Below, piece by piece: positions 118 through 9,808 of a DNA stretch of 10,347 bases (positions are counted from its first letter, which is position 1; the number at the start of each line of letters is the position of its first letter). The stretch is from a virus (lineage: Duplodnaviria > Heunggongvirae > Uroviricota > Caudoviricetes), in the IMG/VR virus record IMGVR_UViG_2695420380_000013; one strand, 5' to 3'. The position numbers were made by a program, and so were the translations under genes. The notes beneath the pieces were generated by a model. That model saw only the letters and a list, made by a program, of their open reading frames with translations. It was not told the DNA's origin and searched no databases.

Positions 118-1200
118 TCATTTTCTCTGGCTGATCTTTACCGGATAACCATCCCGAAGATCAATTAAGTGCTCCGGTTCAGAAGCAAACCATGCATAAG
201 ATCCCCACGCCAATTCTGGTATTGCCTTTTTAAAAGGCAGAGCACTTCTGTCCATAAATGCCGTAAGGAATGCAAGATTTTTCTCGCTGAACCCAGCGTC
301 AATAGCCAAATGAGTGAGAGTAACTTTTCGTTCCCTGTTTATAGGCCCATCTGTCGCAACTACTTCAGTGAAAACTACAAGCATGTCCGAACCCGTTCGG
401 TCCTCTCCCAAATCAATCAAAATAATATCTGGAAGTGCTTTTGAGGCATCAATATTCAGCCCCAATGCTTTTGCCAATACATCATCCTGAGCAACAACTT
501 TATTCCCGGATTCAGACAACCAGAGCACAGTTGGATTCTTAAGAAAATTAGGAGCAAAAACTTCGATGACGGCCTTAGCTATTGTACTTGACGGGCCCGG
601 AGCTAAAGTTCTCTTCTCTCCATTTGGGAAAGTGACGACTACGGCATCAGCAGCAATCACTGCCCCTGATTTCAATAAACGCAACCTAGCAAGAGCGGCT
701 TTGTTCAAATGATTTTCTTGCCAGGAACTTATTGCACTCAGCAGCGAATCTCCTTCAAGCCCGGCATCAAAGAGTGCTGCAAAAGAGCGATTCAAACTGT
801 AACGAGGACGAGAGGATGTGGTGGGTATACCTTTACGCTCAACAATTGCATTGCAAGGTATTAGGCCATTTTTTATAGTTTCATCACGTATTGGCTCACG
901 CGTATTTTCCGCATACCATGCATCAGCAGGCCTTATCTTTTGTTTAGAGAAAGTCATCTTTACCCAGCTTTCTCTGGACGCATCATCAGTAAGAGCAGCC
1001 TGCGAATCTCCCATACTTACAACCTGGCTGGGCCTTATCCATCGCCCCAGCCCCTCAACCGCACCAGCATAAAACATGACAAAAATTGTTTTTGCAGCTA
1101 TTTCCCGAATTAAATATCCACGATTCTCAGTCCCTTCAGGGAAAATTAATTGTAATCTTTCCCGGATAACATTCAATGGGGGAACAACAGGCAGATTCAT
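118..1200 (-). CDS. Candidate Type II restriction endonuclease (360 aa), partner of the upstream methyltransferase; family not established (possibly BsuBI/PstI-like)
   Basis: Long minus-strand ORF whose ATG (1200-1198) overlaps the methyltransferase stop (1199-1197) as ATGA, indicating translational coupling in an M-then-R operon. No ATPase or methyltransferase motifs. AT-rich like the methyltransferase gene. The endonuclease call rests on context; the family guess is from memory of the N-terminal region and is unverified. Confidence 0.55.
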   Translation of the reverse strand: MNLPVVPPLNVIRERLQLIFPEGTENRGYLIREIAAKTIFVMFYAGAVEGLGRWIRPSQVVSMGDSQAALTDDASRESWVKMTFSKQKIRPADAWYAENTREPIRDETIKNGLIPCNAIVERKGIPTTSSRPRYSLNRSFAALFDAGLEGDSLLSAISSWQENHLNKAALARLRLLKSGAVIAADAVVVTFPNGEKRTLAPGPSSTIAKAVIEVFAPNFLKNPTVLWLSESGNKVVAQDDVLAKALGLNIDASKALPDIILIDLGEDRTGSDMLVVFTEVVATDGPINRERKVTLTHLAIDAGFSEKNLAFLTAFMDRSALPFKKAIPELAWGSYAWFASEPEHLIDLRDGYPVKISQRK

Positions 1201-3029
1201 GCAATCATCACTCCATAGAAACCAGCGATAGTTCTCTCAATAATCCGTCTGTGGACGCCAGCATCAATTAACGATTGAATCTCCATCACCTGCTCCAGAG
1301 AAGGCAACGGGATTGAATTCAATTCATAGGCCGAAACAGCAACACTTCCGCTTATACACCTGAACGCCCGATCGACAACATGCGAATTAAGTAGCATATC
1401 AATAACATCAGGGCGAACCGCAGAGAACAATCCGTTTGAATATACAATATTAATATGGTTTTCAACTACTACGCCACCAGTTTCATCTATAAATCCCTGA
1501 GGTAAAATTGCCGCTAAAATCCTTCTGTCCTGTTCCTTCGATGTTGTCCGCTGAACAAGCACACATTCAGATTTTGTCACAAGGAAACCCTGTTGTGGGG
1601 TTATATCGATATAGGGAACATGATTTTTTCTGTCTGCACTAAAACGAAAACCAGCTGAAGTTATTGATTCCGCCCAGACTAATGGGTAGCTATTTTTTCC
1701 TTTCGTCGTACGCAACTGCGACTTAAATCGATTCCAGACTAACTGACCTGTAGAGACTGAGTATCCCAGATCAGCTAAACGCGTAGACATCTGTTTTAAT
1801 ACATTAAGAAAACAGGCATCATCTTTAACGCGTGGCAAAAGCCACGTTGCTCCACCTTTTTCTATATCAACATTACCTATTTTCTCAATTTTTGCTTTGT
1901 TCAACCCCTTAGGGACAAGTGAGGATACCTGGGCCCGAACTTTATGTTCTCCCGCCTTGAATGCTGTCAACATTGTTTCCTGGAGAACATCGTCAAAGAC
2001 CCCATCCCTGTCAGTGACGAAATCAAGGGCATACGGAGTAGTTTTTTCGGTCAAAAGGGTTCGCAGCGCGGTGAAATACTGCCCACCAAGAAAAGAAGTT
2101 GGCGTAAGAAATGCAATAACTCCTGTTTTCTCTTTAACCATGCGAACAGCTAAGTCGGTGAACAATCCATATAGATTTGCATGACCAAATAACGAACGAG
2201 AATATTTTTCTCTCGTTTTAATATCGAGAGTGACACGTCCGTAAGGCGGATTCCCTACCACAAGATCATAACCAGAAAATTTATCTTGCTGAAGCGCATC
2301 AGCAACAATAATTGTATCTTCAGGCAATCTACGTTTTACCTTTACACATAGTGGCATTAGTACAGATTCGAGCAATACCAAACTCATCCAAGCCGCAAAT
2401 GGATCGATTTCTATCCCCTTTAAACGACGACTGATTCTCCTCAACATCCATTCAGGGGAAGACCCCTTGTCTTTTTTTAACATTCGAATGGCTACTGGTG
2501 CCAAAAATGCACCGCCACCACACGCAGGATCAATAACCGATGCATGAGAAAAATCAACACCAGACTTTTCAGCCAGGTCCAAGAGACGCGCTACCAAAGG
2601 TGGGGGGGTATAGTAAGCCCCCAATTCCGAACGGTAAGCGGATGGCAGCATTACCGTATAAATTGACCCAATCAGATATCCAGCGTCCTCCGCCGGAAAT
2701 TGAGCAATAAGCTCACCTGTTCGTTCAGCGAGCTCGCGTGCATCACATGGAATGTCTTCTATGTAAACAGTGTGCGGTACTGCCCTCATTTTAATGCTGC
2801 TTTTTTGCTTTTTTGCAAGGGTATCCCAATATGCAGCTACGATGCTGAAGCAGTATGAGCGGGCATGCATCAACCTTGACTGCCCGGTTTTGTAATTGCC
2901 CGCATAACCTTTGGCCATGGCTTTACAAGTTTGATATCTTTCCAGATTAGAAAACTCATTATCTGTAAAAAAATCAAAATGTTGCACATTCATAATGTAA
3001 AATCCTAATGTATCAAACATGCGGGCCAT
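1197..3029 (-). CDS. N6-adenine-specific DNA methyltransferase, gamma-like motif order (610 aa from the first ATG; an alternative start at 2993 has a better-placed AGGA)
   Basis: Translation contains GAYYTPPPLVARLL (motif X-like), VIDPACGGGAFL (AdoMet-binding motif I) and VVGNPPYGR (catalytic NPPY motif IV), followed by a ~350-aa C-terminal region consistent with a target-recognition domain. Single uninterrupted ORF. Confidence 0.9.
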   Translation of the reverse strand: MARMFDTLGFYIMNVQHFDFFTDNEFSNLERYQTCKAMAKGYAGNYKTGQSRLMHARSYCFSIVAAYWDTLAKKQKSSIKMRAVPHTVYIEDIPCDARELAERTGELIAQFPAEDAGYLIGSIYTVMLPSAYRSELGAYYTPPPLVARLLDLAEKSGVDFSHASVIDPACGGGAFLAPVAIRMLKKDKGSSPEWMLRRISRRLKGIEIDPFAAWMSLVLLESVLMPLCVKVKRRLPEDTIIVADALQQDKFSGYDLVVGNPPYGRVTLDIKTREKYSRSLFGHANLYGLFTDLAVRMVKEKTGVIAFLTPTSFLGGQYFTALRTLLTEKTTPYALDFVTDRDGVFDDVLQETMLTAFKAGEHKVRAQVSSLVPKGLNKAKIEKIGNVDIEKGGATWLLPRVKDDACFLNVLKQMSTRLADLGYSVSTGQLVWNRFKSQLRTTKGKNSYPLVWAESITSAGFRFSADRKNHVPYIDITPQQGFLVTKSECVLVQRTTSKEQDRRILAAILPQGFIDETGGVVVENHINIVYSNGLFSAVRPDVIDMLLNSHVVDRAFRCISGSVAVSAYELNSIPLPSLEQVMEIQSLIDAGVHRRIIERTIAGFYGVMIA

Positions 3030-3657: not shown

Positions 3658-3780
3658 TCACAGTACCGCCTCCTGAAAATCACCCTGATAGAAAGCCGGT
3701 ACACGCTGCATAACTTCACTCTTCCGGCACTCGCGACAGATTATGTTCTGATGTCTGTCGTAGCGGCGTATTTCTCCGTC
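3658..3780 (-). pseudogene. 3' remnant of a paralog of the hypothetical gene at 4200-4771, cut off at the N-run/IS1 junction
   Basis: Encodes DGEIRRYDRHQNIICRECRKSEVMQRVPAFYQGDFQEAVL, which matches the C-terminus of the 4200-4538 ORF (DGEIRRYDRRQNIICSECRKSEAMQRVLAFYQGNFQKVLL). The DNA at 3658-3780 aligns with 4200-4322 at roughly 85-90 percent identity. The upstream part is replaced by NNNNNNNN plus IS1 interior sequence. Confidence 0.6.
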
Positions 3781-3788
3781 NNNNNNNN
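3781..3788. other. Run of 8 N (unresolved bases or scaffold join) exactly at the junction between the phage-gene remnant and IS1 interior
   Basis: Literal n characters in the sequence. Confidence 0.95.
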
Positions 3789-4127
3789 GCCAGCGCTGGC
3801 GCGATTTAGCCCCGACATAGCCCCACTGTTCGTCCATTTCCGCGCAGACGATGACGTCACTGCCCGGCTGTATGCGCGAGGTTACCGACTGCGGCCTGAG
3901 TTTTTTAAGTGACGTAAAATCGTGTTGAGGCCAACGCCCATAATGCGTGCAGTTGCCATGTTTTACGGCAGTGAGAGCAGAGATAGCGCTGATGTCCGGC
4001 AGTGCTTTTGCCGTTACGCACCACCCCGTCAGTAGCTGAACAGGAGGGACAGCTGATAGAAACAGAAGCCACTGGAGCACCTCAAAAACACCATCATACA
4101 CTAAATCAGTAAGTTGGCAGCATCACC
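3789..4127 (-). mobile_element. IS1 fragment: IRL end plus insA region and 5' part of insB; truncated on the insB/IRR side, with an apparent internal deletion inside insA
   Basis: Ends with the IS1 IRL reverse complement at 4097-4127. The minus-strand translation contains the InsA N-terminus ([41 protein letters not shown]) and InsB residues ([52 protein letters not shown]). Relative to IS1 as I recall it, about 85 bp between ...GGCAACTGCA and CGCATTATGGGCG... are missing, which would frameshift insA. Only about 339 of 768 bp are present. Confidence 0.85.
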
Positions 4128-4199
4128 ACAGTGCTGAACTTAATTATTCAGATTTTGGATTATGCTTTCTCTTCACGAAGTTCCGATTGTTAATTTGGC

Positions 4200-4771
4200 T
4201 CACAACAGCACCTTCTGAAAATTACCCTGATAGAAAGCCAGTACACGCTGCATAGCTTCGCTCTTCCGGCACTCGCTACAGATTATGTTTTGACGCCTGT
4301 CGTAGCGGCGTATTTCTCCGTCTGGTAATGACCAGATAAGGTCAGGATCAACCACAGATGGTTTCTTCAGATTTGCCCTTGAGAGTTTTTTGCGGGCGTT
4401 TTGCCAGTCCTTACGCGCCTGTTCAGACGGGAATAACCCGTAACCAGAGTTGTATACATCGCCACTGGCAACCAGCTCTCTGGCGAGAACACTCATCAGA
4501 TATCTTGTCGCACCTGTCTTGGCTTCCAGTTGCCGCAACGTCTCGCGACCGCTCAGACGTACAAGTTCAACAACCTGCCCTTNNNNNNNNNNNNNNAGTT
4601 GTATACATCCCCACTGGCAACCAGCTCTCTGGCGAGAACGCTTATTAAATATCTTGTCGCCCCGGTTTTAGCTTCCAGTTGTCGTAACGTCTCGCGCCCA
4701 CTCTGGCGTACGAGTTCAACAACCTGCCCCTTAATTTTTTCCCGCTCTTCCTGTGTAAATACTTTTGCCAT
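4200..4771 (-). CDS. Hypothetical phage protein (gene X), reading frame interrupted by a diverged tandem duplication and a 14-N run
   Basis: ATG at 4771 (MAKVFTQEEREKIKGQVVELVRQSGRETLRQLEAKTGATRYLISVLARELVASGDVYN...), then the N-run, then a second copy of the same segment (RQLEAKTGATRYLMSVLARELVASGDVYNSGYGLFPSEQARKDW...NFQKVLL) ending at 4200. If the duplication were collapsed, a continuous protein of about 148 aa would result. No family recognised. Confidence 0.45.
4448..4732. repeat. Tandem duplication of a ~135-bp segment (4448-4582 and 4597-4732), copies roughly 88 percent identical, separated by 14 N
   Basis: Both units begin agttgtatacatc(g/c)ccactggcaaccagctctctggcgagaac and end ...gttcaacaacctgccc(c)tt. 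About 16 scattered mismatches, so not a simple read-level duplication. Confidence 0.75.
4583..4596. other. Run of 14 N at the junction of the two tandem repeat units
   Basis: Literal n characters. Confidence 0.95.
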
Positions 4772-4786
4772 AAGCGCCCCCGGCAA

Positions 4787-5533: not shown

Positions 5534-5824
5534 TTACTTCACAACTCCCGGAAAGCTGACATTTGAACGCCAGCTATCCCAGTTAAACGTCACCCACCGA
5601 CAACCGTTCATGGTCATGCGGTCCATAATCCTCTCACCAAGAAGCGTGCTCATTGCGGCATGATTCAGGTTTGTTAACATCCCGACACTGCACAGTGATG
5701 CTGTCCGGCGATCAATTATCTGGTGCAATACCACCTGCTCGTTTTTCGTCTCCCGCTGAATGCCTATTTCATCCAGGACCAGCAAATCAACCCCGCAAAG
5801 CTCCTGTAAAAATTTTTCACCGGA
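5534..5824 (-). CDS. DnaC-like replicative helicase loader, C-terminal part only (5' portion lies in the 593-N run)
   Basis: Translation ...LLVLDEIGIQRETKNEQVVLHQIIDRRTASLCSVGMLTNLNHAAMSTLLGERIMDRMTMNGCRWVTFNWDSWRSNVSF closely parallels the E. coli DnaC C-terminus (Walker B LLVIDEIG, NQIVDRR, GMLTNSN, LGERVMDRM, FNWDSYR). Stop at 5534-5536. Confidence 0.85.
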   Translation of the reverse strand, partial: SGEKFLQELCGVDLLVLDEIGIQRETKNEQVVLHQIIDRRTASLCSVGMLTNLNHAAMSTLLGERIMDRMTMNGCRWVTFNWDSWRSNVSFPGVVK

Positions 5825-6417
5825 NNNNNNNNNNNNNNNNNNNNNNNNNNNNNNNNNNNNNNNNNNNNNNNNNNNNNNNNNNNNNNNNNNNNNNNNNNNN
5901 NNNNNNNNNNNNNNNNNNNNNNNNNNNNNNNNNNNNNNNNNNNNNNNNNNNNNNNNNNNNNNNNNNNNNNNNNNNNNNNNNNNNNNNNNNNNNNNNNNNN
6001 NNNNNNNNNNNNNNNNNNNNNNNNNNNNNNNNNNNNNNNNNNNNNNNNNNNNNNNNNNNNNNNNNNNNNNNNNNNNNNNNNNNNNNNNNNNNNNNNNNNN
6101 NNNNNNNNNNNNNNNNNNNNNNNNNNNNNNNNNNNNNNNNNNNNNNNNNNNNNNNNNNNNNNNNNNNNNNNNNNNNNNNNNNNNNNNNNNNNNNNNNNNN
6201 NNNNNNNNNNNNNNNNNNNNNNNNNNNNNNNNNNNNNNNNNNNNNNNNNNNNNNNNNNNNNNNNNNNNNNNNNNNNNNNNNNNNNNNNNNNNNNNNNNNN
6301 NNNNNNNNNNNNNNNNNNNNNNNNNNNNNNNNNNNNNNNNNNNNNNNNNNNNNNNNNNNNNNNNNNNNNNNNNNNNNNNNNNNNNNNNNNNNNNNNNNNN
6401 NNNNNNNNNNNNNNNNN
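5825..6417. other. Run of 593 N (gap or masked segment) covering the 5' part of the DnaC-like gene
   Basis: Literal n characters. ORF-track entries crossing it are artefacts of translating N as X. Confidence 0.95.
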
Positions 6418-6560
6418 AGAAATATGATTCACACAACGCTGGTTGTTCGTGCCGCTTACCGGGAGCAACCAGGGGTTTTCAAAATTCCGGTCCGGCCCAA
6501 AAAACGTCGTCGCTCGCTGAACAAATTCCGTTCCCGCTTTCCCGGTCGCCGCCAGGTATC

Positions 6561-6910
6561 NNNNNNNNNNNNNNNNNNNNNNNNNNNNNNNNNNNNNNNN
6601 NNNNNNNNNNNNNNNNNNNNNNNNNNNNNNNNNNNNNNNNNNNNNNNNNNNNNNNNNNNNNNNNNNNNNNNNNNNNNNNNNNNNNNNNNNNNNNNNNNNN
6701 NNNNNNNNNNNNNNNNNNNNNNNNNNNNNNNNNNNNNNNNNNNNNNNNNNNNNNNNNNNNNNNNNNNNNNNNNNNNNNNNNNNNNNNNNNNNNNNNNNNN
6801 NNNNNNNNNNNNNNNNNNNNNNNNNNNNNNNNNNNNNNNNNNNNNNNNNNNNNNNNNNNNNNNNNNNNNNNNNNNNNNNNNNNNNNNNNNNNNNNNNNNN
6901 NNNNNNNNNN
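6561..6910. other. Run of 350 N (gap or masked segment) covering the 3' part of the O-like replication gene
   Basis: Literal n characters. The 143-bp island at 6418-6560 between the two runs is open in two minus-strand frames, so the true reading frame and gene boundary cannot be decided. Confidence 0.95.
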
Positions 6911-7510
6911 ATCGGCTTTCAGCGCATACGCTGAATCGGCTTCCGGTGTCGAGCCTGCTGGCTGACCAGGATTGACGGTCTGAACATCCCCTGCCTGGTT
7001 CGTGGCGTTTTTTACGCCATGGACCATAGTGTTTTGATCTTCTTTATCTGTATCTTTATCTGTATCTGTCGTGACTCGTCGTGACATGTGCGTGACATTT
7101 CGTGACGCGCCGTGACAATCGCCATTTTGTTCCCGCTTTCTTTCCCTCTCTCGCTGCGCCCTCTTGCGCTCTGCAGGAGATTTTGCGGTTTGCGAAATAT
7201 TGCCGTTGTCCTCTTTAAGCACCTGGCGTTTTTCCCATCCAGTGATTAAATCACCATCAAGTACCCGCCCCTGCATCGTCTGCAAAATTGAATCAATTAC
7301 CTCTTCTGTCACGTCGAGCGCACTTGCCAAATCTTCTGTCGTGACATCAATGTGACCTCGCGTGACATTTCGTGACGCGCTCACCAGGAGGTGGATATAC
7401 ACTGCCATCACTGTTGCAATTGGCTGCCCTGACACCCTGGCAATTGTTCGCCACTTAGGGTCATTTGGCATGTCATGCCATAATCTGAGCCAGGCGTTAG
7501 CCATACTCAC
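6911..7510 (-). CDS. Lambdoid replication initiation protein (O-like replisome organizer), N-terminal part; 3' end unresolved in the N-run
   Basis: Minus-strand ORF starting GTG 7510 or ATG 7504 (MANAWLRLWHDMPNDPKWRTIARVSGQPIATVMAVYIHLLVSASRNVTRGHIDVTTEDLASALDVTEEVIDSILQ...). Sits directly upstream of the DnaC-like gene and downstream of the cro-like/YdaT-like genes. Contains iteron-like DNA repeats that encode a repetitive acidic linker (VTTDTDKDTDKED), as in lambda O. Confidence 0.65.
7041..7116. repeat. Iteron-like repeat cluster inside the O-like gene: 12-bp tandem tctttatctgta x2, then five CGTGAC hexamers; candidate phage replication origin
   Basis: Direct reading: tctttatctgtatctttatctgta at 7041-7064, and cgtgac at 7070, 7080, 7091, 7101 and 7111. 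The 21-mer gcgtgacatttcgtgacgcgc at 7090-7110 is repeated exactly at 7360-7380. AT-rich tract immediately adjacent (7031-7068). Confidence 0.5.
7340..7380. repeat. Second CGTGAC/TGTGAC hexamer cluster, including an exact 21-bp copy of 7090-7110
   Basis: cgtgac at 7340, tgtgac at 7351, cgtgac at 7361 and 7371. The 21-mer gcgtgacatttcgtgacgcgc at 7360-7380 is identical to 7090-7110. Lies in the 5' part of the O-like gene (the encoded ASRNVT peptide is repeated too). Confidence 0.45.
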
Positions 7511-7575: not shown

Positions 7576-8001
7576 TCAATGTACTGCCACAGCATTTCCT
7601 GCCGGGCCACCACGGTTCATCTGATTGAAACCGGCGATTGCCACTGCGACAAAATCATCAGCGTCTCTCACCAGTCGTTCATGCGTCTCCACCAGTTCCC
7701 GAAAATAAGCTGAACTGTGGCTGCGCATTCGAGCCACCAGCGGAGGTGGCATTGCCCTTTCGATCGCAGGTAACAACGCCTGAATTTTTTCAACAGCGTC
7801 AGGGGTGTCTTTATCCAGCCAACGGAAAATCTTTTGGGTGTTGAGATAAAGCGTGTTGTGCTTGCTGTCGTTATGCAGAACCGGAAACGTCATTCCCAGT
7901 TCGAAATAAACCCTGGTTATTTCAGCTGCCGGAACTTTTTCACCGTCCGGATGCGCCCAGGCTTTCATCGCCATGCGGATGTGTTCATGCTTGATTTTCA
8001 T
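7576..8001 (-). CDS. YdaT-like prophage protein (141 aa; occupies the cII position of the early-right operon)
   Basis: ATG at 8001 overlaps the stop of the upstream cro-like gene (ATGA). Translation MKIKHEHIRMAMKAWAHPDGEKVPAAEITRVYFELGMTFPV... Gene order cro-like, this gene, O-like, DnaC-like mirrors ydaS-ydaT-ydaU-ydaV of Rac-type prophages. Family name is from memory. Confidence 0.55.
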   Translation of the reverse strand: MKIKHEHIRMAMKAWAHPDGEKVPAAEITRVYFELGMTFPVLHNDSKHNTLYLNTQKIFRWLDKDTPDAVEKIQALLPAIERAMPPPLVARMRSHSSAYFRELVETHERLVRDADDFVAVAIAGFNQMNRGGPAGNAVAVH

Positions 8002-8261
8002 GAATCAACCCCCGCCGATGGTTGTGTGTTAGCCTGAAACTCAGCAGGCAAGCCGTCAGTTGGGTTGGGGTAGGTTTTACTGTCAATCTCATGTGGGGTC
8101 ACCACCCATCCCGTTGCTTCACACCAACGTAATATTTTTTCTCCTGTAAGTTTTGCACGCCCCGTTATAACGTGGCTGACCATCCCTTGGGATGCGCCAA
8201 CAATCTCAGCAAATGAACTCTGGGTTATATGAAAATGATGCAAATATTCTCCAAGATTCAT
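7998..8261 (-). CDS. Cro-like HTH DNA-binding protein (YdaS-like), 87 aa from the ATG at 8261 (ORF track extends to a TTG at 8288)
   Basis: ATG at 8261 preceded by AGGG about 6 nt upstream. Translation MNLGEYLHHFHITQSSFAEIVGASQGMVSHVITGRAKLTGEKILRWCEATG... contains a helix-turn-helix signature (QSSFAEIVGASQGMVSHVITGR). Transcribed divergently from the cI-like repressor gene. Confidence 0.75.
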   Translation of the reverse strand: MNLGEYLHHFHITQSSFAEIVGASQGMVSHVITGRAKLTGEKILRWCEATGWVVTPHEIDSKTYPNPTDGLPAEFQANTQPSAGVDS

Positions 8262-8297
8262 AATCCGCCCTATGTGATGTGTTACCAATGCATAATT

Positions 8298-8337
8298 AAT
8301 AGCACTGTTATTTTTAAAAGTAAATAGTGATGCTATT
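8298..8337. promoter_or_regulatory. Operator pair in the cro-like/cI-like divergent intergenic region: two 15-bp palindromes AATAG-N5-(C/T)TATT
   Basis: aatagcactgttatt at 8298-8312 and aatagtgatgctatt at 8323-8337. The same palindrome family recurs twice at 9434-9474. Located between divergent start codons at 8261 and 8373. Confidence 0.55.
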
Positions 8338-8372
8338 TCAAAGTGATTAGCAATCTTATTAGAATTGGATGT

Positions 8373-8873
8373 ATGAAAAGAAAATCATTGTCAGACACCG
8401 ACCTCAACGCCGCCAGAAGACTGAAAGAAATCTGGATGGCAAAGAAATCTCAGTTGGGATTGACTCAGGAACGTGCGGCGGAAATTATGGGGTTTTCAAC
8501 ACAAGGGGCGGTAAGTCACTACCTAAATGGTCAAACCCCACTAAACCTTGAGGCTGTTCTAAAGTTTGCTGGCTTACTGAAAGTTCCCCCTGAGTCAATC
8601 AGGCCAGACATGGTAGATTTGCTGCAAATTGCAAGGATGTATTGTCGAGAACCACAGCAAGATAACATAGTCGCATTACCAGCAGACACAGAACAAACAG
8701 AGGATGAACTACCGTTTGCCGTAGAGCCGATGGAACGAGATTTAATCCATACGTTCAGAGCTTTTCCGAAAGAAGATCAAGAACACATGCTTCAGGAGAT
8801 GAAAGATAAAAAAGAATCAATGGATCGTACGGTTGCGCGGTGGTTAGCTGCACAAAAAGGCCGTCGCGCCTAA
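8373..8873 (+). CDS. cI-like HTH (XRE-family) repressor without a peptidase S24 domain (RacR/PaaR-like), 166 aa from the ATG at 8373
   Basis: Translation MKRKSLSDTDLNAARRLKEIWMAKKSQLGLTQERAAEIMGFSTQGAVSHYLNGQTPLNLEAVLKFAGLL... has a classic HTH (LGLTQERAAEIMGFSTQGAVSHYLNG) and an acidic C-terminal tail. No Ser/Lys autocleavage motifs seen. Divergent from the cro-like gene and directly upstream of the antitoxin/toxin pair. Confidence 0.8.
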   Translation: MKRKSLSDTDLNAARRLKEIWMAKKSQLGLTQERAAEIMGFSTQGAVSHYLNGQTPLNLEAVLKFAGLLKVPPESIRPDMVDLLQIARMYCREPQQDNIVALPADTEQTEDELPFAVEPMERDLIHTFRAFPKEDQEHMLQEMKDKKESMDRTVARWLAAQKGRRA

Positions 8874-8892
8874 ATCAGAGGAGATATGTAAA

Positions 8893-9087
8893 ATGAGTAC
8901 AGTCCTTTCCCCAATGGTTTCAGAATTTGAGACAGTTGAGCAAGAAAATAGTTACAACGAATGGCTGCGGGCCAAAGTAGCAGCAAGCCTCGCGGATCCC
9001 CGCCCGGCGATTCCGCATGATGAGGTAATGGCGGAAATGGAACAAATTATTGCCCAAATTGCTGCTGCAACTCACAGAGGTGAATAA
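8893..9087 (+). CDS. Small antitoxin (64 aa) partnered with the ParE-family toxin; ParE-associated (PaaA-like) antitoxin candidate
   Basis: ATG at 8893 with a GAGGAG Shine-Dalgarno upstream. Its stop TAA (9085-9087) overlaps the toxin ATG (9087-9089) as TAATG. Size and position are typical of type II antitoxins. No clear ribbon-helix-helix signature, so the family is inferred from context. Confidence 0.65.
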   Translation: MSTVLSPMVSEFETVEQENSYNEWLRAKVAASLADPRPAIPHDEVMAEMEQIIAQIAAATHRGE

Positions 9088-9377
9088 TGTTACCCGTTTT
9101 ATGGCTACCATCTGCTCGTGATGATTTGCGCCAGATCGTAGCCTACATAGCTAAAGAAAATCCCGCGGCAGCACGCAGAATGAAAATTCGAATTGAAACA
9201 TCCGTTTTGCCGCTCACAGAGCATCCTTACCTGTATCCTCCAAGCGAGCGAGTTCTTGGTCTTCGTGAAATTGTAACTCATCCTAACTACATCATCCTTT
9301 ACCGAGTAACAGCATCAAGCATAGAAGTAGTAAATATTGTGCATTCTCGAAGACAGTATCCAGGCAAAAACAGTTAA
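9087..9377 (+). CDS. parE: ParE/RelE-superfamily toxin (96 aa)
   Basis: Translation MLPVLWLPSARDDLRQIVAYIAKENPAAARRMKIRIETSV...YIILYRVTASSIEVVNIVHSRRQ matches the conserved ParE pattern (DL..I..YIA..NP.AA.R....I......YRV.....EI.RVLH.R). Translationally coupled to the upstream antitoxin. Confidence 0.85.
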   Translation: MLPVLWLPSARDDLRQIVAYIAKENPAAARRMKIRIETSVLPLTEHPYLYPPSERVLGLREIVTHPNYIILYRVTASSIEVVNIVHSRRQYPGKNS

Positions 9378-9393
9378 TTATTCCCGCCGACAG

Positions 9394-9418
9394 AACCACC
9401 TTAGGGTGGTTTTTTCTT
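9394..9418 (+). terminator. Rho-independent terminator downstream of the toxin gene
   Basis: Stem accacc (9395-9400), loop ttag, stem ggtggt (9405-9410), followed by a T-run (tttttcttg) starting 17 nt after the parE stop. Confidence 0.65.
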
Positions 9419-9433
9419 GCCCCAACAAAAAAC

Positions 9434-9474
9434 AATAGCGATGCTATTTACATCAAAAAAATAATGATGCTATT
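9434..9474. promoter_or_regulatory. Second operator pair (two 15-bp palindromes of the same AATAG-N5-CTATT family) overlapping a candidate plus-strand promoter
   Basis: aatagcgatgctatt at 9434-9448 and aataatgatgctatt at 9460-9474. A possible -35 tttaca (9448-9453) and -10 tattgt (9471-9476) with a 17-nt spacer would drive the downstream small genes. Confidence 0.5.
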
Positions 9475-9655
9475 GTTTCAGGCGTCAACCCACCCCGCCC
9501 CACAGAATGCAGGGCAATACTTCGAGTTACCAGACAGTGGTCAGGGGTTAAGTAGCCAGCCCGAGGCGTAAGAACATGACGGCAGGGTTCAATCTTTAAC
9601 TATGCAGCAGGTTTTTTGTTCCGCCACCCCGGCGTTAAGGGGAAATGAGGTCAGC

Positions 9656-9808
9656 ATGGATACTATCGATCTTGGCAACAACGAATCTCTGGTGTGCGGC
9701 GTGTTCCCTAACCAGGATGGAACGTTTACCGCCATGACGTATACCAAAAGCAAAACGTTTAAAACCGAATCTGGCGCGCGTTGCTGGTTAGCCAGAAACA
9801 CTGACTGA
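9656..9808 (+). CDS. Small prophage protein (50 aa), YdaF-like (DUF1391-like)
   Basis: ATG at 9656 preceded by GAGG 5 nt upstream. Translation MDTIDLGNNESLVCGVFPNQDGTFTAMTYTKSKTFKTESGARCWLARNTD. Family recalled from Rac-type prophages, unverified. The ORF track's longer start at 9602 lacks an RBS. Confidence 0.55.
   Translation: MDTIDLGNNESLVCGVFPNQDGTFTAMTYTKSKTFKTESGARCWLARNTD

Follow-up and report, generated by a model that had tools for sequence, protein, structure and literature searches.

What reads the short palindromes that lie on either side of the repressor and toxin genes in this stretch of DNA? Across the window (the whole stretch analysed, 10,347 nucleotides), they fall into two clusters. 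The first lies within the 111-bp gap between the divergent start codons of a Cro-like gene (ATG at 8261) and a repressor gene (ATG at 8373), both of which encode helix-turn-helix (HTH) products, and the second lies past the terminator that follows the toxin gene. The reading that we favor, at a probability of roughly 85%, is that a lambda-type bistable immunity switch, run by the CI-like repressor and Cro, has its operators at five such sites. Very probably, a lambda-like prophage repressor and Cro bind the palindromes and thereby switch three promoters. The design is ordinary and well understood, but the operator DNA sequence of this version is previously undescribed.

The palindrome and its five copies

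The motif AATAG-N5-CTATT occurs exactly twice in the window, at 8323-8337 (AATAGTGATGCTATT) and 9434-9448 (AATAGCGATGCTATT), where 0.01 matches are expected. Allowing up to one mismatch raises the count to four (0.19 expected), a number reached in 0 of 200 shuffles. The two additional copies, at 8298-8312 (AATAGCACTGTTATT) and 9460-9474 (AATAATGATGCTATT), each carry a single half-site mismatch. An earlier note on this DNA had listed these four copies, and a motif search of the window finds all of its coordinates correct, although only two of the four are exact. The note had also counted two sites in the divergent cro/cI region; the location is right, but the region holds three, the one missed being a weaker site at 8346-8360 (ATTAGCAATCTTATT) with two mismatches to the motif. 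At the homologous position, the related loci L004, L007, and L010 have ATTAGTAAAACTATT, with one mismatch. Only two of the five sites are therefore perfect palindromes. From start to start, the sites are 25 and 23 nt apart in the first cluster (OR1 to OR3) and 26 nt apart in the second (OL2 and OL1). A third OL site was sought in the window and not found; three downstream sites occur in L090 only.

Three predicted promoters under the sites

On the minus strand, a PR-like promoter (8296-8324) can be read by hand from the sequence: a -35 element TTTACT (8324-8319), a 17-nt spacer, an extended TG (8304-8303), and a -10 element TATTAA (8301-8296). It would drive the Cro-like, YdaT-like, O, and P genes. 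It is not among the promoter-scan output for the window because its -10 has no T at position 6. The predicted operator OR1 (8298-8312) covers the PR spacer and 4 nt of the PR -10, and almost every related locus has a counterpart at -75 relative to the repressor start codon. The predicted operator OR2 (8323-8337) is a perfect palindrome with its center 43 nt from the start codon of the repressor gene; it shares 2 nt with the PR -35 and lies immediately next to the -35 of a PRM-like promoter. This PRM-like promoter (TTCAAA-17-TAGAAT, 8337-8365, plus strand) was returned by the promoter scan, and OR3 (8346-8360), predicted to be a weak operator, spans its spacer and reaches one base into its -10. 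The PRM -10 stops 7 nt short of the repressor ATG, so that a leaderless repressor mRNA is predicted, and a -10 placed 6-7 nt ahead of this ATG is conserved in all related loci.

The second cluster lies on a PL-like promoter, the equivalent of dicBp or PL933P, which the scan places at 9447-9476 on the plus strand (TTTACA-18-TATTGT with an extended TG). The predicted operator OL2 (9434-9448, perfect), distal to the start site, overlaps the PL -35 by 2 nt. Its proximal neighbor, the predicted operator OL1 (9460-9474), extends over the PL spacer and into the PL -10 by 4 nt; the L002 counterpart of OL1 is a perfect AATAGCAGTGCTATT. The PR and PL regions are thus built alike, the proximal site covering the -10 and the distal site touching the -35. 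Upstream of PL, the plus-strand operon of repressor, antitoxin, and toxin genes ends in an intrinsic terminator (9392-9420), a 9-bp stem followed by a U-run. It is not listed by the scan and was read by hand and checked by folding, which gives the hairpin at 9392-9413 a free energy of -15.1 kcal/mol (z -3.2); the terminator is conserved in L001 and L002. The earlier placement of the second cluster past a toxin terminator and on a candidate promoter is thereby confirmed.

The repressor and its Cro-like partner

The CI-like repressor (166 aa; 8373-8873, plus strand; HTH domain at residues 27-74) has an N-terminal domain homologous to that of lambda CI, N-terminal arm included (E=3e-9). An S24 peptidase domain is not found by Pfam, which returns only HTH_3 and HTH_31, so direct induction by RecA is not expected. 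Resemblance to PaaR2 and DicA is seen in the last 44 aa. With no S24 domain and with this C-terminus, the protein belongs, as judged from its sequence, with the non-cleavable repressors of the DicA/PaaR2 type. Its recognition helix reads TQGAVSHYLN, without a change in seven relatives whose identity is 68-84%.

The Cro-like HTH protein (87 aa; 7998-8261, minus strand) has homologues of 44-83% identity in every locus that carries a related repressor, and these Cro-like proteins share QG(M/Y)VSH. The starts of both genes were taken from the RefSeq annotation of L001 and L002. Longer reading frames (repressor from GTG 8343, Cro from TTG 8288) were rejected for these RefSeq starts; GTG 8343 falls within the operator region.

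One could consider that the AATAGY sites are read by the Cro-like protein only and that the CI-like repressor recognizes something else in the same regions. The motif is tied to the Cro-like genes no less strictly than to the repressor N-terminal domain, so that comparative evidence by itself does not tell the two proteins apart, and the related module of CP-933P, a cryptic prophage of E. coli O157:H7, does have two overlapping repeat classes (PMC8630535). Yet the two recognition helices are near-identical (QGAVSH in the repressor and QGMVSH in the Cro-like protein), a second conserved repeat class is not visible in 37 unique OR regions, and a prophage would gain nothing from OL sites to which its repressor did not bind. 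A site set that serves Cro alone is accordingly quite improbable.

Neighboring genes

The genes next to the switch are those of a known kind of module. On the minus strand, the Cro-like gene is followed by a YdaT (CII-like) regulator gene (141 aa; 7576-8001; PF06254), whose product is 77% identical to the YdaT of CP-933P. An exact copy of the YdaT operator, for which the consensus is TTGATT-N6-AATCAA (PMC9986795), is found at 7991-8008, at the ydaT start in the PRE-type region, and the sequence there matches the PRE933P primer. On the plus strand, the repressor gene directly precedes that of a PaaA2-type antitoxin (64 aa; 8893-9087; PF21217, E=3e-23; PDB 3zbe, E=1e-23). A ParE2-type toxin gene comes next (96 aa; 9087-9377; PF05016, E=2e-17; PDB 5cw7, E=7e-37), and a single terminator stands after parE.

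Beyond PL, a conserved leader (9487-9655) and ydfA (DUF1391; 9656-9808) form the plus-strand start of an early-left operon, which in L001 runs on to ydfB, ydfC, and dicB; the window stops short of dicB. The earlier note had placed a group of small genes under the second cluster. They do lie next to PL and OL, but they are the beginning of a ydfA...dicB-type early-left operon and not a stand-alone set. As a put/nut-type structured RNA, the leader (9483-9660) folds no better than shuffled sequences (z +1.4), and an alignment of five leaders, one of them 75% identical, gives a covariation term of about 0 with one compensatory pair. Scanned against Rfam at E up to 1, the window gave a chance match to a CRISPR repeat only, with nothing in the PL leader, and HK022 was not among the matches when a phage collection was searched with the leader.

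Conservation across related prophages

The palindrome search across related prophages that the earlier note had proposed was carried out with that note's own pattern on 76 loci (612 kb) with a repressor N-terminal domain of at least 55% identity, and it finds the motif conserved. A match lies upstream of the repressor gene in 75 of the 76, at least two OR matches are present in 63, and the downstream pair is also present in 63, counts that exceed the number of independent events because the loci share kinship (about 6-8 distinct lineages). Elsewhere in these 612 kb there are only 14 matches. In 36 control loci (290 kb), there are 11 scattered matches and no pair.

Since the scan used a set pattern, the half-site columns of the resulting site profile are biased by selection. 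Positions 6 and 10, however, lie outside the search pattern, and they are C or T in 71/71 sites and G or A in 71/71 sites, respectively, which is dyad-symmetric. Among 19 unique E. coli-type OR sequences, none of the 10 half-site columns of OR2 varies, compared to all 5 of its center columns, and L002, with a repressor 80% identical, retains the half-sites while the centers differ. The sites support an operator code of the form AATAGY-N3-RCTATT, with a predicted half-site AATAGY and a center of 3 bp.

Because the motif is A+T-rich and embedded in promoter elements, part of this conservation could reflect promoter function. Taken to its limit, this would mean that the palindromes are promoter DNA only, PR and PL being paralogous copies, and that no protein binds them. 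The two promoters do share the build of their -35, TG, and -10, and the 'TGcTATT' of both proximal sites forms part of the extended -10. On the other hand, the center and left arm of OR2 lie outside any hexamer, yet its half-sites are invariant while the center varies. Also, OR3 sits in another promoter, PRM, and the dyad symmetry reaches as far as positions 6 and 10. Finally, heteroimmune loci have similar -35 and -10 positions but entirely different repeats. Promoter copying as the whole explanation is thus very unlikely, and we return to the sites as predicted operators.

The motif stays with the repressor and Cro whatever the cargo may be: PaaA2-ParE, HipA_2/DUF3037, HigB/HTH, or nothing. 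At the loci with a downstream pair, the DNA between the clusters can hold a toxin-antitoxin pair, defense genes, or nothing at all. This bears on the idea that the sites are autoregulatory operators of the PaaA2-ParE complex, as in classical type II systems, which is attractive insofar as the clusters flank the toxin-antitoxin operon. The same layout, however, is found with no toxin-antitoxin pair in L007 and L014-L016 and with unrelated cargo in L004 and L010. Besides, PaaA2 matches only the PaaA2 family in Pfam and no DNA-binding family, and in CP-933P the regulation is assigned to PaaR2, YdaS, and YdaT (PMC8630535). Control by the toxin-antitoxin complex is extremely improbable.

The AATAG motif is missing from heteroimmune loci that share the flanking DNA, namely CP-933P, Qin, and the phages 666R9 and pPE4, and it is absent from lambda as well. 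A host nucleoid or architectural protein of the IHF, Fis, or H-NS type might be expected at A+T-rich promoter DNA such as this. But the motif is absent at the same junctions of those four elements, which have the same or similar hosts and the shared leader, and it tracks a phage-encoded DNA-binding domain across genera, leaving a host protein with hardly any likelihood. The predicted operator sequence instead covaries with the DNA-binding domains of repressor and Cro, as immunity specificity requires. This immunity type is common in prophages of E. coli and Shigella, and it is also found in Citrobacter, Yersinia, Rouxiella, and Salmonella. In the phage collection searched, no sequenced phage has a repressor with more than 60% N-terminal-domain identity.

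Comparison with known switches

The closest tested system is that of CP-933P, in which EMSA, footprinting, and GFP reporters established the OR operators and a repressed PL (PMC8630535, Jurenas et al. 2021). There, PaaR2 and YdaS leave footprints on OR and repress PR, PRM, and the PL beyond parE2, and paaR2 is proven to be leaderless (PMC8630535). The gene order is common to both: O, ydaT, cro-like gene, OR, repressor, paaA2, parE2, terminator, PL/OL, leader, and early-left genes. PaaA2 and ParE2 are homologous, the YdaT proteins are alike and come with the exact operator, the repressor start is of the leaderless type, and the PL past parE2, which occupies the position of the tested PL933P just ahead of the shared leader, carries operators resembling those at OR.

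Sequence is shared with CP-933P up to about 8010 (ydaT) and again from about 9487 (leader), whereas the two elements differ in Cro, in the repressor N-terminal domain, and in both operator segments. Only residues 123-166 (44 aa) of the repressor align with PaaR2, at 52% identity; the N-terminal domain is unrelated and, unlike that of PaaR2, lambda-CI-like. No similarity to YdaS was detected in the Cro-like protein. The control regions differ as well, with AATAGY-N3-RCTATT here in place of GTTTAGTAA-type repeats and with three OR and two OL sites compared to four inverted repeats and three operators in CP-933P; L003 lacks the AATAG motif. Since the DNA-binding domain, Cro, and operators all differ, a different immunity specificity is predicted. 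Of the features of a PaaR2-PaaA2-ParE2-type module, the locus has the antitoxin-toxin pair, the upstream regulator in the same operon, and the neighboring YdaT with its operator, and it lacks a PaaR2-like DNA-binding domain and operators of the CP-933P type.

Compared to lambda, the geometry is nearly the same: the site centers are 20, 43, and 68 nt from the repressor ATG here and 19, 42, and 66 nt in lambda. Both have three OR sites near a leaderless repressor start, and PRM and PL have the same orientation. The locus has the layout of a lambdoid CI/Cro switch: divergent genes, spaced dyad sites on PR and PRM, and a second set on PL. In contrast to lambda, the sites are shorter (15 bp, as against 17 bp) and of different sequence, OL has two sites rather than three, and 1.1 kb separates OR from OL, where lambda has 2.3 kb. 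The cargo between the repressor gene and OL is a toxin-antitoxin pair in place of rexAB, a YdaT-type regulator stands in place of CII, and the repressor has no S24 autocleavage domain. The likeness to the OR/OL sets of lambdoid phages drawn in the earlier note gains support from this geometry, from the motif traveling with the repressor domain and Cro, and from the tested homologous module of CP-933P.

In the DicA/DicC system of the cryptic prophage Qin of E. coli K-12, DicA represses dicBp (PMC10448788). Like Qin, the locus has a short repressor with no cleavage site, a divergent Cro-like gene, and, just ahead of ydfA, a PL-equivalent promoter that carries paired operators. The similarity of the repressor to DicA is weak and confined to the C-terminal tail (29% over 51 aa), and the HTH domain and TGTTAG-type operators of Qin are different. 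Qin also has no toxin-antitoxin pair between dicA and dicBp, and most of the long conserved leader is missing.

The Stx-converting phage Lyz12581Vzw offers a further comparison. The N-terminal domain of its CI, a LexA-family protein, is 52% identical to that of the repressor here, with a similar recognition helix (TQGAVSQ), and the Cro proteins are homologous. The only clear motif match found is one exact AATAGTCTAGCTATT, at -53 from the cI start of this phage. Unlike the repressor here, this CI has a C-terminal S24 peptidase domain; the cargo of the phage consists of a methyltransferase and a BsuBI-type endonuclease.

A model of the switch and its significance

In a prophage, repressor dimers would bind OR1 and OR2 and shut PR, and with it the Cro-like, YdaT, O, and P genes. 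The repressor on OR2, about 42-43 nt upstream of the predicted PRM start, would stimulate its own leaderless transcript, which would also carry PaaA2-ParE. At high concentration, the repressor would fill the weak OR3 and shut PRM. At OL2 and OL1, 1.1 kb away, it would silence the ydfA...dicB/kil-type early-left operon from PL, and oligomerization via the PaaR2/DicA-like C-terminal tail may loop OR to OL. With its near-identical recognition helix, the Cro-like protein would read the same sites with the opposite preference.

The analysis leaves the current understanding of lambdoid switches unchanged. What it offers is a predicted operator code and a full promoter-operator map for a previously undescribed immunity type. 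It also points to a clean natural specificity swap, in which the same flanks enclose a different Cro, a different repressor N-terminal domain, and two different operator sets. The PaaA2-ParE2 pair would be expressed from more than one heteroimmune repressor cassette, and so the conclusions drawn in CP-933P on toxin-antitoxin pairs embedded in a lysis-lysogeny switch may extend further.

A last observation concerns the A-run in the PL spacer between OL2 and OL1, which varies among prophages whose repressor N-terminal domains are 99-100% identical. The gap between the two sites is 9, 10, 11 (as in the window), 12, or 13 nt, and the length of the run changes how the two operators are phased as well as the PL -35/-10 spacing (16-20 nt). 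It is conceivable, if rather unlikely, that the run is a slipped-strand, phase-variable setting of how the early-left (kil/dicB-type) operon fires and is repressed.

Sites, genes and promoters

Comparison with related loci supports the view that five sites in the window form a lambda-type operator set of an undescribed immunity variant in the PaaR2/DicA class. In a motif scan of the window, the exact palindrome AATAG-N5-CTATT occurs at 8323-8337 (OR2) and 9434-9448 (OL2), two matches against 0.01 expected, and copies with one mismatch lie at 8298-8312 (OR1) and 9460-9474 (OL1). With up to one mismatch allowed there are thus four matches against 0.19 expected, a number reached in none of 200 shuffles. 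Allowing two mismatches adds a site at 8346-8360 (ATTAGCAATCTTATT; OR3), 23 nt beyond OR2, so that the first cluster has three members. The earlier note had placed four copies at the first four positions, in two clusters of two; the positions and the clusters stand, but two of the four carry a mismatch and the first cluster is not a pair.

The first cluster lies in a 111-bp control region. On one side of it are the minus-strand genes for an 87-aa Cro-like helix-turn-helix (HTH) protein (7998-8261), YdaT, which is CII-like (7576-8001), and an O-like replication protein (6479-7510). On the other is the plus-strand gene for a 166-aa HTH repressor (8373-8873), followed by genes for a PaaA2-family antitoxin (8893-9087) and a ParE toxin (9087-9377), both similar to E. 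coli O157:H7 proteins of solved structure, PaaA2 (E=1e-23) and ParE2 (E=7e-37), respectively. Next comes a terminator hairpin (9392-9413; -15.1 kcal/mol, z -3.2), and the second cluster lies between this hairpin and a 170-nt leader preceding ydfA (DUF1391).

A promoter scan found TTCAAA-17-TAGAAT at 8337-8365 (PRM-like) and TTTACA-18-TATTGT with an extended TG at 9447-9476 (PL-like). The latter overlaps the second cluster, which, as first proposed, sits downstream of the toxin terminator on a candidate promoter. A PR-like promoter was read by eye on the minus strand: TTTACT (8324-8319), a 17-nt spacer, TG and TATTAA (8301-8296). The PR-like and PL-like promoters have a common build and therefore follow one plan, pointing outward to the Cro-like gene and ydfA, respectively. 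On each, the proximal operator (OR1 or OL1) covers the spacer and four -10 bases, and the distal one (OR2 or OL2) shares two bases with the -35. The inward promoter, PRM, has OR3 across its spacer, and its -10 ends 7 nt short of the repressor ATG, so that a leaderless repressor mRNA is predicted. The centres of the OR sites are 20, 43 and 68 nt away from this ATG, compared to 19, 42 and 66 in the annotated lambda record.

Conservation across related loci

In an E. coli locus whose repressor is 99% identical (L001), the aligned sites are the same as in the window. In another (L002; repressor 80% identical, DNA about 83%), all half-sites are kept while the centres are altered (OR2 is AATAGCATAGCTATT, OL2 is AATAGCATTACTATT), and OL1 is a perfect AATAGCAGTGCTATT. 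A protein search found relatives of the N-terminal domain joined to different C-terminal parts and neighbor genes, and their contigs all have three sites 5' of the repressor gene and a pair 3' of the repressor module. The cargo between repressor gene and pair is HipA_2 with DUF3037 in L004, HigB with an HTH protein in L010 and nothing in L007. Autoregulation by the toxin-antitoxin complex, with the sites as its operators, is excluded since they persist in loci without any toxin-antitoxin pair.

Genome and viral contig collections were scanned for loci with a repressor N-terminal domain at least 55% identical, giving 76 from E. coli/Shigella, Citrobacter, Yersinia, Rouxiella, Salmonella and metagenomes, which through shared kinship represent perhaps 6-8 independent lineages. 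The motif is conserved in these loci: 75 of the 76 have at least one match within 150 bp 5' of the repressor start (63 at least two), 73 have a downstream match and 63 a downstream pair, and only 14 matches fall elsewhere in 612 kb. The 36 control loci (unrelated-HTH loci, CP-933P, Qin, two phages of other immunity types and lambda) have 11 scattered matches in 290 kb and no match pair.

Across 19 unique control regions of the E. coli type, the 10 half-site columns of OR2 are invariant and all five centre columns vary; this centre lies beyond all promoter hexamers. The 71 unique clustered sites all have C or T at position 6 and G or A at position 10. Both positions are outside the search pattern, so the dyad extends to a 6-bp half-site, AATAGY, around a 3-bp centre. 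Mere paralogy of the two promoters does not explain the sites, as it leaves unaccounted for OR2 arms that stay fixed while the centre drifts, the existence of OR3 and a dyad that takes in positions 6 and 10.

The CP-933P-type locus (L003) is almost identical in sequence to the window as far as about 8010, at the ydaT start, a stretch that takes in the exact YdaT operator (7991-8008), and again from about 9487, in the leader. Between these points it has a different Cro-like gene, control region, repressor N-terminal domain and terminator-to-PL segment, and the AATAG motif is absent. With shared flanks and a differing interior, two unlinked DNA segments change together with two DNA-binding domains. 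The PL junctions of phage 666R9, phage pPE4 and Qin follow this pattern too, each with its own repeats directly 5' of a common "CATCAAC..." start. Binding of a host factor is excluded as the origin of the sites, since the motif is missing from heteroimmune loci with common flanks.

Candidate binding proteins

Repressor residues 2-81 match the lambda CI N-terminal domain, including its N-terminal arm (E=3e-9). No S24 peptidase domain was found in the 166-aa protein. The C-terminal 44 residues share 52% identity with the end of PaaR2, and their similarity to the DicA C-terminus is weaker. The recognition helix TQGAVSHYLN is unchanged in seven relatives of 68-84% identity. Every related locus encodes a homologue of the Cro-like protein (44-83% identity) with an almost identical helix, QG(M/Y)VSH, the pattern expected of a repressor and a Cro with common operators. 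While comparison alone cannot tell which of the two proteins binds, or whether both do, the common helix makes it likely that both do.

The same DNA-binding domain occurs with at least three C-terminal parts: the PaaR2/DicA-like tail by itself (166 aa), the same tail with a second HTH (240-255 aa) and an S24 peptidase domain. Examples are proteins P0018, P0020 and P0022 (244-255 aa) and loci L014 (5001-5723) and L090 (4968-5711).

Relation to known systems

In CP-933P, of E. coli O157:H7, the footprints of PaaR2 and YdaS lie in the intergenic region and the two proteins repress PR933P and PRM933P, low PaaR2 activates PRM, and paaR2 is leaderless; PL933P, beyond parE2, has similar operators, and both proteins repress it about 100-fold (Jurenas et al., PMC8630535). 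In Qin, of E. coli K-12, DicA acts as the repressor of dicBp and, together with DicC, makes up a bistable switch (PMC10448788). The model of the earlier note is thus the established one for such prophages. Its OR/OL-like reading is supported by comparison (geometry, co-occurrence in the 76 loci and these precedents) and appears correct and near-complete. The new element is the specificity: a lambda-CI-like DNA-binding domain, an unrelated Cro and an operator sequence of which no description was found in the literature searched. In the phage collection searched, no record exceeded 60% identity in the repressor N-terminal domain; the nearest was CI of Stx phage Lyz12581Vzw (52%), a repressor of the S24 type, with a single exact AATAGTCTAGCTATT located at -53 relative to its start.

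Other features of the region

The slot from repressor gene to OL, which resembles the position of rexAB in lambda, contains PaaA2-ParE in the window and other cargo elsewhere: HipA_2/DUF3037, the PADLOC candidate PDC-M66 A/B (L004, 3787-5360); HigB plus HTH, PD-Lambda-2 A/B (L010, 3612-4339); and two unknown ORFs (L090, 5774-6912). In the Stx phage (L111, 3810-6229), a methylase and a BsuBI-type endonuclease come after cI, and the OL position was not located. They resemble a pair at the left end of the window (118-3029, minus), a BsuBI/PstI-type restriction endonuclease (360 aa) and an Eco57I/N6-type methylase (610 aa).

In loci whose repressor N-terminal domains agree to 99-100% (L030-L038, L001), the OL2-OL1 gap is 9, 10, 11, 12 or 13 nt, solely through the length of an A-run (window 9453-9461), which alters the PL spacer (16-20 nt) and operator phasing. 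Slippage, homopolymer sequencing error or drift could account for this. A lone one-mismatch match, AATAGGTGCAATATT, recurs outside the window, at a fixed place about 4.4-5.2 kb past the repressor start, in many E. coli-type loci (L038 9799, L051 10081) and is probably a chance match within a conserved gene.

The leader after PL (window 9487-9655; L003 3608-3775; also L109 and L110) is conserved above its neighbor genes and is found behind at least four immunity types, including that of an Actinobacillus phage whose copy is 75% identical; it gave no Rfam match, stable global fold or covariation. At the ydaT start codon, 7991-8008 is an exact TTGATT-N6-AATCAA, the published YdaT operator, and the surrounding sequence agrees with the PRE933P primer from the CP-933P study. 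Within the O-like gene, CGTGAC repeats about 10 nt apart form two clusters (7070-7116 and 7351-7376; five matches against 0.01 expected) that look like origin iterons. Finally, 3658-4786 and 5534-6975 contain masked-N runs, along with ORF fragments that recur and encode stretches of almost the same peptide (for example, DGEIRRYDR.QNIIC.ECRKSE in 3658-4101 and again in 4200-4538), which suggest insertion-sequence or duplication damage in that part of the prophage.
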